Positions 34,246-36,741 of a stretch of 64,000 bases of DNA are shown piece after piece. The position numbers and the translations under genes are program-made. Numbering within the stretch: the stretch's first letter is position 1; the number at the start of each line of letters is the position of its first letter. The DNA comes from Eledone cirrhosa (taxonomy: Eukaryota): NCBI GenBank assembly GCA_964016885.1, contig OZ024764.1:558001-622000 (forward strand). The letters are read 5' to 3'. Under the pieces are notes generated by a model. That model was not told the DNA's origin and made no database searches. It was given only the letters and a program-made list of their open reading frames with translations.

Positions 34246-34415
34246 TTTAAAAAAAAATAAAAAAAAGACCAACCGACCTCCCGGCCGGTTGGTCTTGATT
34301 CTCATTATTGCAAAGTTTTATTTTTTTGATTGATTTTATTTCACAAAAAGTATAAAATATTATCTCGTGGATATTACTAATTATATAATGAATATAAATT
34401 TAAAACATGCAAAAA

Positions 34416-35500
34416 TTATAAATTTTCTGTAAAAGGACTTGGATCAGGTGCATTTCTATTTGACTGCATCATTTTTCGGTACTTTCCCCATTTTCGTTGT
34501 CCATCGTTTTCTTTCTCTTCGTCGCTATCTTCGTTGCATTTGAGAGTGTCCCCGCTTCTACAAGGAGACGGAGTCCGAAATCTGTCTGATCCTGTTTCGT
34601 TGTTGTTTCGTTCTCGTTGCAGTCTTTCATACTCTTCTACAATGTTAACCAAATTATCATCTGACGAAGAACCGTCGTCATTGACAATTTCTGAGAAGCA
34701 ATGTTCGTAGAAAAGTATATTCCATACAGATGGATTAATTCTTTTTTTGACGTATTTAAGGAAAGGAGATGCTGCATTGAAGATGTACTCAGTATATCTA
34801 GTAATGAATGCTATGCGTTCTGCCAGTGGTGCGTTCTGGTCGAACTTATTTGAAGTAATTATTAATGGTGTTCTATGTACGACTTGATCTTGTTTAAATT
34901 TTACTGAGACTTCAGTGTCAGTCCCTTCTGCTAATTTTTTAAACGTTTGTAACGTTTCTAGTGTGAAGTTTGGTTCTTCTATGAGTCCGATTTCTACATT
35001 AATGAGGTTTTGAAATGGAAAACTACTTGTTCCTTGTACCGTACTCACGTGTGTGAATAGTTCAGCTATAGACCTTGCTATCATCGACTTCCCTGTATTT
35101 GGTAGTCCACGTAGTACTAGTAGATTTTGCTTTGGTTTCTTTTGTGTCAGAAGTTCCCATACATTTTCTACAAATAGAACCTCGTTAATTTGCTGTGTCA
35201 TTAATATTGATTTTAGAACCTTCAACGATACGTCTGTCCATATAGTTTTTCTTGTCGTTTTGGAAACTTTCCCAGTTCATTGCCTCCATTTTTTCTTTGA
35301 ATGGCATGACAAGCATTTTCAATTTGACACATTCTAATACTTTTTTAATGATCGTATCGTACATTGGATGGCTAATTGCACGCATGAAATTGTCGTTGTT
35401 AGGCCTGTTAAGCCAATGCGACTTCATGTCCTGTTCTGACCTGAATTTTTTGCTAGTGAATATGTAAGTGAGGTAGTTGAAGAGAGTCATCGTAGTTCCG
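34416..35500 (-). other. NS1: Endogenous parvoviral element: NS1 C-terminal half (SF3 helicase), one frameshift near 35200
   Basis: Walker A GLPNTGKS, FPFQ, Walker B GLIEEP, B' KKLAEG..VSVKFK, and motif C RTPLIITSN. Confidence 0.92.
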
Positions 35501-35509
35501 TTTTTCGTT

Positions 35510-36391
35510 TTAAAGCATGGTTCTTCCGTTTGCTGATTTGTCTTTGTCGTTTAAATGAGATATTTCGTATGTTTTATTCGGAAATAATGCGTATTTGTTA
35601 TCTACGTAGTGTATCATCCATGGTCTAGTGTTAAATGTTGTGTTAGTTGTAGTTGTATTTTGTAATGTTCCTAATTCGTCTGTTAACGGTATTATATTGG
35701 ATATTTTATATCTGCATGATTTTATTCTCAGGTTGCTTGCTGGTGTTAAGTATGTTTGTAATTCTGCTGTTGTCATGCTTGCTTTTAAATCTGTATATGG
35801 TATGAATGCTGCTCTGTGGTTTATTTTTAATTCTATGTATTCGGCATTGTGTTTTTTGTAATATGCTTTATCTATTGGATTGTCTGTACAGTTAACGTAA
35901 TGCACGAATGTTCTAGAGAATTTTTTGGATACTATTGGATTTTTGTCTCCTATATCTGGTGGTTGATCCCCTTGCGCTAATGCTGCTGATCCCCCTGGAG
36001 ATGGTCCTACATGTGGATCTCCCATTGTTGGTGTTTCTGCTATACCACTATCTTGTGATCTTACTGCGTTAAGTAAATCTTTATCTGATATATCGCAAAC
36101 TTCTTCTTCGTTTTTATGTGATTGTTCTTCTTCTACTCTTCTTTTTTTTCCCGTTGGTGGCATTACCCAATTTTTCCCTTTTATTATATTTTTAACTAAG
36201 AACGCCGCTACTCCCTCTACTTTCTCTGCACACTCTATAAACTTATTATCTGCGTCTATTACATTTATGTTATCGTTATCGTAATCTATATCGTGTTCCC
36301 TGCAGCAATTATCTAAATCATTTATCGGTATTTTATGCAAGTCATTTGTATATGGTCCGCAATAATTATACCCAGGAATATGTAAAGGCAT
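35510..36391 (-). other. VP1: Endogenous parvoviral element: VP1 N-terminal part with PLA2 domain and start of the capsid protein, C-terminally truncated
   Basis: PGYNYCGP calcium loop, D..CREHDIDY catalytic helix, AD..F, a KKRR NLS-like motif, then densovirus-like capsid sequence. Confidence 0.92.
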
Positions 36392-36539
36392 GATTACTTA
36401 CGTTGAGTTCTGCCAACATTCCTGCATCTCGATTTTTCAGTTCTTCGTAACTCATGGTGATGGTTCTTCTATGTAGTAGCGGAGTAACGGCGTTCTTTTA
36501 GCGTCTGCGTCTTCAACTGTTTTGAAATGCGCGCCTTAA

Positions 36540-36642
36540 TATATTTATAGTAAATTTATGCTGACGTGTTCTTATTATCACGTGATAGCAACGTGTTTGT
36601 ACACGTTTCATCACTATTTTCTATATCTCTATTCTGATTGGC
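36540..36642 (-). promoter_or_regulatory. Probable viral capsid-gene promoter (CCAAT box and TATAAATA)
   Basis: The - strand reads CCAATCAG at ~36633-36640 and CTATAAATAT at 36541-36550, upstream of the VP1 ATG. Confidence 0.5.
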
Positions 36643-36741
36643 TGATTAATTTCTGCACAATGTACTGCTCTTTTGGCAAGGGAGGCAAGGCGGTCGGGAG
36701 GGAGGTGGAGGAATCTAAAGAATTTAGCGGATAGGCAATAA

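Follow-up and report, generated by a model that had tools for sequence, protein, structure and literature searches.

Capsid-first endogenous parvoviruses in the genome of Eledone cirrhosa, with a capsid gene probably nested in an intron of NS1

The parvoviral insertion described here lies on the minus strand of a 64,000-nucleotide stretch of the Eledone cirrhosa genome (contig OZ024764.1, positions 558,001 to 622,000; hereafter the window, whose own numbering is used below unless another sequence is named). It is a real endogenous parvovirus copy in the germline, broken and internally deleted, of a family in which the capsid gene (VP) precedes NS1. A good case can be made that the complete virus carried, on one strand, a left hairpin, a promoter, a leader exon, VP, NS1 and a right hairpin, that its NS1 would be produced by splicing out VP, and that the window copy derives from such a genome by internal deletion. 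The gene order, the deletion, the insertion into a Helitron without site duplication, the phase-matched splice donor and acceptor and the terminal hairpins were observed directly.

The 3.0-Gb genome was searched at the DNA level and yielded at least 97 matches at no fewer than about 25 places, both lower bounds as 40 of the 124 candidates were scored. Forty genomic stretches of 9-10 kb (labelled L0xx) were retrieved, and 15 of them (L021-L030, L032, L033 and L035-L037) have NS1 beginning after VP ends, both genes being on one strand. These correspond to 12 distinct variants (~65-88% nucleotide identity) when four near-identical copies are counted once. The gap between the two genes is usually ~50 nt and contains no terminal repeat, the hairpins being located outside; L030 carries an insertion. 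The full ORFs span 524-540 codons for VP and about 550 codons for NS1, and whole elements measure ~3.8-4 kb, at the low end of the parvovirus size range of about 4-6 kb. The other 25 stretches contain fragments, a second parvoviral lineage or mosaics of separate insertions (e.g. L040, L048 and L050), and a VP start immediately behind an NS1 end is seen in none of these 25. The second lineage (lineage B), whose NS1 and VP are respectively 26% and 25% identical to those of the window family (lineage A), is also capsid-first, at 8 stretches; the lineage was noted at G000:C12:9,077,463-9,080,900 (L021/L022), in L041-L047 and in L055. In an ENA assembly of another genome, the single ORF P0037 matches the VP C-terminus over its first 142 residues (36%, E 5e-12) and NS1 over the rest; a VP end of the P0037 type occurs alone in two further entries. 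The capsid-first, single-strand order is almost certainly native to this parvovirus family.

The window insert covers 36749-34247 (2,503 bases, minus strand, as are the viral features within it). Filler of ~10 nt (36740..36749) occupies the left junction, viral homology begins at 36739 and no target-site duplication is present. Of the left terminal hairpin, only the inner half is left (36655..36739); the break is at the apex and the loop is inverted (flop). This half precedes a TATAAA motif (36544..36549), the predicted TATA box of the left promoter; most lineage-A copies have a similar motif at the corresponding position. The 18-codon leader MSYEELKNRDAGMLAELN (36402..36455), predicted to be the first exon of NS1, is immediately followed by a predicted phase 0 splice donor, GTAAGT (36396..36401), 10 nt upstream of the VP ATG. 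The 5' part of the capsid gene VP1 (35549..36391; about 281 of ~524 codons; 88% nucleotide identity to L021) codes for an N-terminal PLA2 domain (Pfam PF08398, E 1.7e-12). As an ORF, VP runs from the ATG at 36391 to a stop at 35512-35510 (295 codons), its final ~11 codons being an out-of-frame reading of NS1 DNA. The 3' part of NS1 (34416..35529), including the SF3 helicase, is read in two frames, 35550-35185 and 35276-34416 (Parvo_NS1, E 1.1e-18), with a single frameshift at about 35,256-35,224. Downstream are found a predicted polyadenylation signal, AATAAA (34335..34340), which also follows NS1 in L021, L022 and L026, and a short subterminal hairpin with a T-run (34247..34294), the same hairpin as in L021, L022 and L032. 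In L032 an inverted terminal repeat comes after that hairpin; the right terminal repeat proper is absent from the window copy. The ORFs, the Pfam matches and the TATAAA motif thus agree with the initial annotation, which had described a minus-strand VP with PLA2 followed by NS1, with one frameshift and a promoter-like region upstream. The join of the two genes, placed there at ~35505, has to be moved to 35,549-35,529: by comparison with five other copies, VP homology stops at 35,549 and NS1 homology begins at 35,529-35,526. This junction (35529..35549) marks an internal deletion of ~1.3 kb that took away the 3' part of VP together with the predicted acceptor and the HUH half of NS1, and the window copy is indeed shorter than L021, its nearest copy, by about 1,300 nt. 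The deletion is the sole local event in the window copy. Over 35657-36210, contigs of one sample differ from the window at 4 bases and show a 3-nt gap in 2 of 3 runs, hinting at two haplotypes of the insertion.

The virus interrupts a Helitron Rep gene. The 5' side of this gene (36750..37795, minus strand; Helitron_like_N, PF14214, E 6e-14 at 36750-36977) is frameshifted and ends in ...YVRHYGRPD, and the Rep/helicase resumes at 30588..34246 (minus strand), degraded and with further insertions, in frames reading KWNEIG...DLLAQIFRLKL with PIF1 and Pif1_2B matches. An ankyrin-repeat fragment (32930-33286, minus strand) inside the Helitron and a 99-bp tandem array (32266-32998) are possibly captured host sequence. 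Read depth is 110-180 in the Helitron flank 36750..37795 versus 5-8 within the virus. In empty Helitron copies, 36750 is linked to 34246 through 26 other bases (depth 103) encoding LFITFTCNP on the minus strand. In the viral insertion, 2,503 bases take the place of these 26; ~10 nt are filler and the target is not duplicated, as would be expected of capture at a chromosome break. Spread of the window copy by the Helitron was considered and rejected, only one 100% match being present among the matches listed in the genome search. In 3/3 contig runs, a contig of 1,076 nt assembled from short reads (34546-35621, 0-1 mismatches) crosses the internal junction; the runs all come from one sample of one study and may represent the assembled animal itself. 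Coverage of the element by a RAD-seq run (X4) is minimal. The left host junction is also spanned, with 30 letters on the host side for a standard of 31; no contig spanning the right host junction appears among the matches listed.

The assignment to parvoviruses rests on both genes. The SF3 helicase of NS1 was recognised by Pfam (Parvo_NS1, E 1e-18) and its profile matches B19 NS1 and AAV Rep. Full-length NS1 copies carry the HUH motif (HFHIIW), a downstream Tyr motif and Walker A; the HUH half is deleted in the window copy. The predicted NS1 structure (pLDDT 78) matches AAV Rep68, over ~515 aligned columns, and parvoviral NS1, the best named structural matches being only 14-18% identical over the full length. 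For the full-length capsid, the top 16 structural matches of the model, itself of low confidence (pLDDT 46), are all parvovirus capsids (Z 7.9-10.5, rmsd 4-6.6 Å). With the PF08398 match, this capsid-like predicted fold points to a jelly-roll (T=1) capsid protein bearing a VP1 PLA2 domain.

The leader upstream of VP has the properties of a coding exon. Its 18 codons are open in all 14 copies, versus stops in 14/14 and 6/14 in the other two frames; it begins with ATG in 13 of the 14, and its differences (0.30/0.22/0.44 by codon position) fall mostly at third positions. It ends in a GT[AG]AGT donor in 12/14 copies, in phase 0 and 7 or 10 nt upstream of the VP ATG, the other two copies having one changed base. 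In 2 of the 3 whole elements scanned, this GTRAGT is the only one on the sense strand. A CAG acceptor is found after the VP stop and just before NS1, at the same position and in phase 0 in 12/12 copies (L030 was left out of this count, its insertion having displaced the anchor); the pyrimidine fraction of its tract is 0.71 versus 0.43 locally. The copies are related, and the 12/14 donors and 12/12 acceptors do not represent independent events. The first Met of the NS1 ORF is replaced by Leu in 6/12 copies. The first exon and its linker would place 23 residues ahead of the first NS1 strand, compared with 24 contiguous residues in lineage B. When a profile of this exon was compared with 211 retrieved proteins, nothing better than E 1.2 was obtained and no other NS1 N-terminus matched. 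With donor and acceptor in the same phase, the most economical interpretation places the whole of VP inside an NS1 intron, and it is likely, judging from these signals, that NS1 is made by splicing.

According to this model, RNA from the left promoter, once spliced, would yield an NS1 composed of the 18-codon exon and exon 2, the whole capsid gene being removed, whereas RNA retaining the intron would give VP1 by leaky scanning past the leader. A single splice choice would then select replicase or capsid. In-frame Met codons of VP occur at 1, about 77 and about 120, and the shorter capsid proteins could be initiated at the last two by scanning, or by reinitiation after the leader frame stops. 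In unspliced RNA the leader frame ends at a stop 26 nt inside VP, in 10/10 copies; this stop lies within PLA2 codons and may be a by-product of them. Two or three AUGs stand upstream of that of VP, and 11 copies share no conserved second acceptor ahead of the Met presumed to start the major capsid protein; capsid expression is therefore not fully explained by the nested-intron model. The same stop could also be invoked for a different scheme, in which the VP-first order is again native, NS1 is translated unspliced from its own promoter at the VP end, and the leader is an upstream ORF damping capsid translation. Lineage B appears to work so: TATAAAT occurs in the last VP codons in 4 of the 6 copies shown, with TTTAAAT in a fifth, and its NS1 has its own ATG followed by the contiguous 24-residue N-terminus. 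Moreover, 12/12 lineage-A copies retain a second in-frame Met two codons from the start of NS1 exon 2. However, the VP end of lineage A showed no conserved TATA, and the conserved GT[AG]AGT and the pyrimidine-tract CAG, both in phase 0, would be left without a role, so that we regard an internal NS1 promoter in lineage A as unlikely and retain the intron-nested capsid gene.

Some insertions are probably young. L026-L029 (on C998, C14, C10 and C5) are four insertions 99-100% identical with unrelated flanks; each is a differently broken inverted concatemer and several end in (TA)n tracts. Their near-identity points to recent integration of what would be a linear virus, replicative DNA of which could have been captured at chromosome breaks by end joining. 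Near-identical insertions on different contigs, in a genome with at least 25 occupied places, could also be read as a genome-resident mobile element of parvovirus origin re-inserting in the germline, in place of repeated captures from outside. This seems very improbable: the young copies are truncated inverted concatemers and not clean units, no target duplications are found, and differences between copies are mainly synonymous, with the capsid and its PLA2 domain under purifying selection. The dN/dS of VP between copies is about 0.16-0.23 (NS1 dS is saturated and gives no value), so that the divergence between copies arose while they were functional viruses, ahead of insertion. Were the infection persistent and inherited, a mobile element and an outside virus would be hard to tell apart. 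Other rearranged pieces were noted in the retrieved stretches. At L038:1545-4517 (+), a 991-codon open frame runs from a Gypsy pol (RT, RNase H, integrase) in frame into a parvoviral NS1 piece, and at L034:1450-4600 and L037:5850-7030, NS1 and VP pieces form tandem arrays with units of about 108 bp and 80 bp.

The termini, all seen in integrated copies, are those expected of a linear virus. Left ends are long palindromes whose mismatched loop occurs in both orientations, one in the window, L021 and L036 and the other in L029, L030, L032 and L033: the window hairpin half matches both arms of the 90-150-bp palindromes of the latter four, and its loop is the reverse complement of theirs. L028 is a perfect head-to-head palindrome and L026 a tail-to-tail one. 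Flip/flop hairpin ends are a feature of rolling-hairpin replication. Together with the concatemers, they point to a linear virus that would replicate in this way, by the mechanism described for parvoviruses (PMC6537627). A circular virus opened at a single origin would also yield a fixed VP-NS order by permutation, but it is scarcely tenable in view of the flip/flop loops, the head-to-head and tail-to-tail junctions, the distinct left and right palindromes sharing a common core motif, and the lack of any head-to-tail junction between NS1 end and VP start in the 40 stretches.

It is just as implausible that a canonical or ambisense genome was rearranged at the window locus, by inversion of an ambisense genome, concatemer deletion or the joining of two segments as first proposed for this DNA: the window junction is a genuine deletion and, relative to L021, the VP half has the lower synonymous divergence (0.30, versus 0.57 for the NS1 half), but this gap is present in all pairs, intact copies included, the 15 VP-NS1 stretches are colinear, their genes being separated by only ~50 nt that contain no terminal repeat, and lineage B and P0037 have the same order. 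These local causes are refuted because the nearest relatives natively run VP-then-NS1. Nor do the two parts derive from unrelated viruses, since both halves of the window copy are closest to L021 (VP 88%, NS1 74% nucleotide identity). As a separate observation, nearly all lineage-A pairs diverge less at four-fold sites in VP than they do in NS1 (for L024/L025, 0.18-0.34 versus 0.56-0.69) with equal second-position divergence. An overlapping ORF as the cause of the low synonymous divergence of VP was rejected, no alternative same-strand frame exceeding 54 aa in 3 lineage-A copies, and codon bias accounts for only part of it.

Sequences resembling both lineages are known from other animals. The best named relative of VP is a 'capsid [Octopus vulgaris]' (40%), and no named close NS1 relative was found in BFVD (14-27% identity). 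P0060 groups with the window NS1 and, by eye, reads the same as O. bimaculoides KOF81493 (246 aa) as far as the latter is given. The supplement of Francois et al. 2016 (PMC5013282) had already included helicase fragments of Octopus bimaculoides, Sepia and Euprymna. The lineage for which the initial annotation had suggested an undescribed mollusc parvovirus is real, but pieces of it had been catalogued in 2016. By eye, and for the sequences available from that paper, the Euprymna and Sepia ESTs resemble lineage B, and the Lamellibrachia (tubeworm) fragments resemble P0015/P0049, the sister group. The cephalopod and annelid sequences it lists are, in its accessible part, fragments given without gene order, termini or splicing. 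In NS1 trees built without named invertebrate references, lineage A and its ENA and Logan relatives form one clade (99/96), apart from the NS-first IMG/VR genomes. Scans of viral contigs returned no close relative, only 7 distant NS-first genomes and one unrelated 7.9-kb contig; NS comes first in all 7 full-length IMG/VR relatives that have both ORFs, and no capsid-first free or metagenomic virus was present in the IMG/VR and JGI scans (viral and metagenome contigs). In the spider element P0195 (an Araneus ventricosus gene model), the VP portion shows homology to the capsid of lineage A (E 1.5e-11) but comes after NS1, in the usual order, unlike lineage A despite the shared capsid type. A single origin of lineages A and B was rejected by an AU test (p 0.017) on 207 helicase columns, with a group defined after the first tree had been inspected. 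As lineages A and B do not tolerate being forced together and the homologous capsid of the spider element goes with an NS-first order, the capsid-first order would have arisen more than once or been reversed.

The neighbourhood of the window copy is strongly biased in orientation. Between 24 and 52 kb, 15/15 Pfam transposon-domain matches are on the minus strand, as is the virus; one plus-strand Penelope-like piece was recognised in this region by resemblance only. An FKBP-type TPR exon at 4766-5131 is on the plus strand, and the virus is antisense to it. The initial annotation had noted that both genes are antisense to the presumed cluster transcript, and the co-oriented transposons and the opposite TPR exon fit this; its explanation by rearrangement does not hold, both genes being antisense here because the virus is single-sense. 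The TPR exon is separated from the transposon nest by a (GTG)-rich 41-bp array (12417-15804) and a 72-bp satellite array (16351-22966). Further on, 41710-64000 holds a 10.4-kb tandem duplication, 99.97% identical, with nested Helitron, piggyBac, Penelope-like and Gypsy pieces, which is either a recent duplication or an assembly repeat. Elsewhere, transposon neighbours could be identified at 13 stretches: 10 have them in the orientation of the virus, 2 have them in the opposite one, and 1 is mixed; counted by cluster, co-orientation is 9/11 (p 0.065), which is only suggestive. Separate parvoviral pieces of both lineages lie on one strand per cluster at C12:8.97-9.09 Mb, C2:345.36-345.39 Mb, C841:29-83 kb and C25:7.43-7.45 Mb. 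The window thus presents dense transposon fragments on one strand, antisense to what would be a read-through transcript, and the location of older copies in such strand-biased clusters would be compatible with piRNA trapping. Copies landing in one-strand transposon clusters, as here, could feed antisense piRNAs; on the strength of strand and neighbours, a piRNA role of the viral copies is put at even chances.

Parvoviruses need NS1 to be made ahead of capsids. Described parvovirus genomes place NS first or on the opposite strand, and a VP inside an NS1 intron likely solves this timing problem in another way. What is new is a capsid-first and probably intron-nested layout for which no description was found, fragments of the lineage having been known before. 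The copies give near-complete descriptions of two cephalopod parvovirus lineages formerly represented by helicase fragments only; the four near-identical insertions suggest a recent virus, and with the strand-biased clusters, antiviral piRNA memory becomes open to testing in a mollusc. The nested intron yields one sharp prediction, namely an RNA joining the donor at 36396..36401, or its equivalent in other copies, to the CAG acceptor in front of NS1. With the odds about level, one might be dealing with a deep lineage of cephalopods, and probably also of annelids, still infecting its host, with VP in the first NS1 intron as an early/late switch, while a second lineage would have become capsid-first separately by means of an internal NS1 promoter, both being recorded by the host, in antisense orientation, within one-strand piRNA clusters.

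In the full-text literature searched, which comprised few subscription papers, neither a capsid-first single-strand parvovirus nor the architecture of an octopus endogenous parvovirus was found described. Gene order is not among the defining traits of the family in the ICTV profile (PMC6537627). A 2024 review (PMC11357303) states, in its accessible part, that in all parvoviruses NS is on the left and VP on the right, a layout from which lineages A and B depart, VP preceding the NS1 body. In other respects, lineage A resembles the monosense Parvoviridae as outlined in PMC6537627 and PMC11357303, with a genome of ~4 kb, terminal hairpins, genes on one strand, an NS1 combining HUH and SF3 domains and a jelly-roll VP with an N-terminal PLA2. 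Tapeworm EmuDNV, in the available part of PMC6880638, is likewise found as multi-copy germline insertions with terminal repeats and single-strand genes; unlike in lineage A, NS1 comes first, VP follows 67 nt downstream and each has its own TATA box. The mouse kidney parvovirus, a spliced hamaparvovirus, offers a parallel for the predicted expression of lineage A: according to the accessible sections of bioRxiv 10.1101/571109, it likewise uses one left promoter, short upstream exons and large introns which choose the ORF to be read. As far as those sections go, its order is NS-NP-VP and its introns remove NS to reach VP, whereas the reverse is predicted for lineage A, whose VP also has a PLA2 domain, unlike that of the mouse virus. 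Under the splicing model, the NS1 of lineage A would still start at the left end of the genome, by way of its 18-codon exon.
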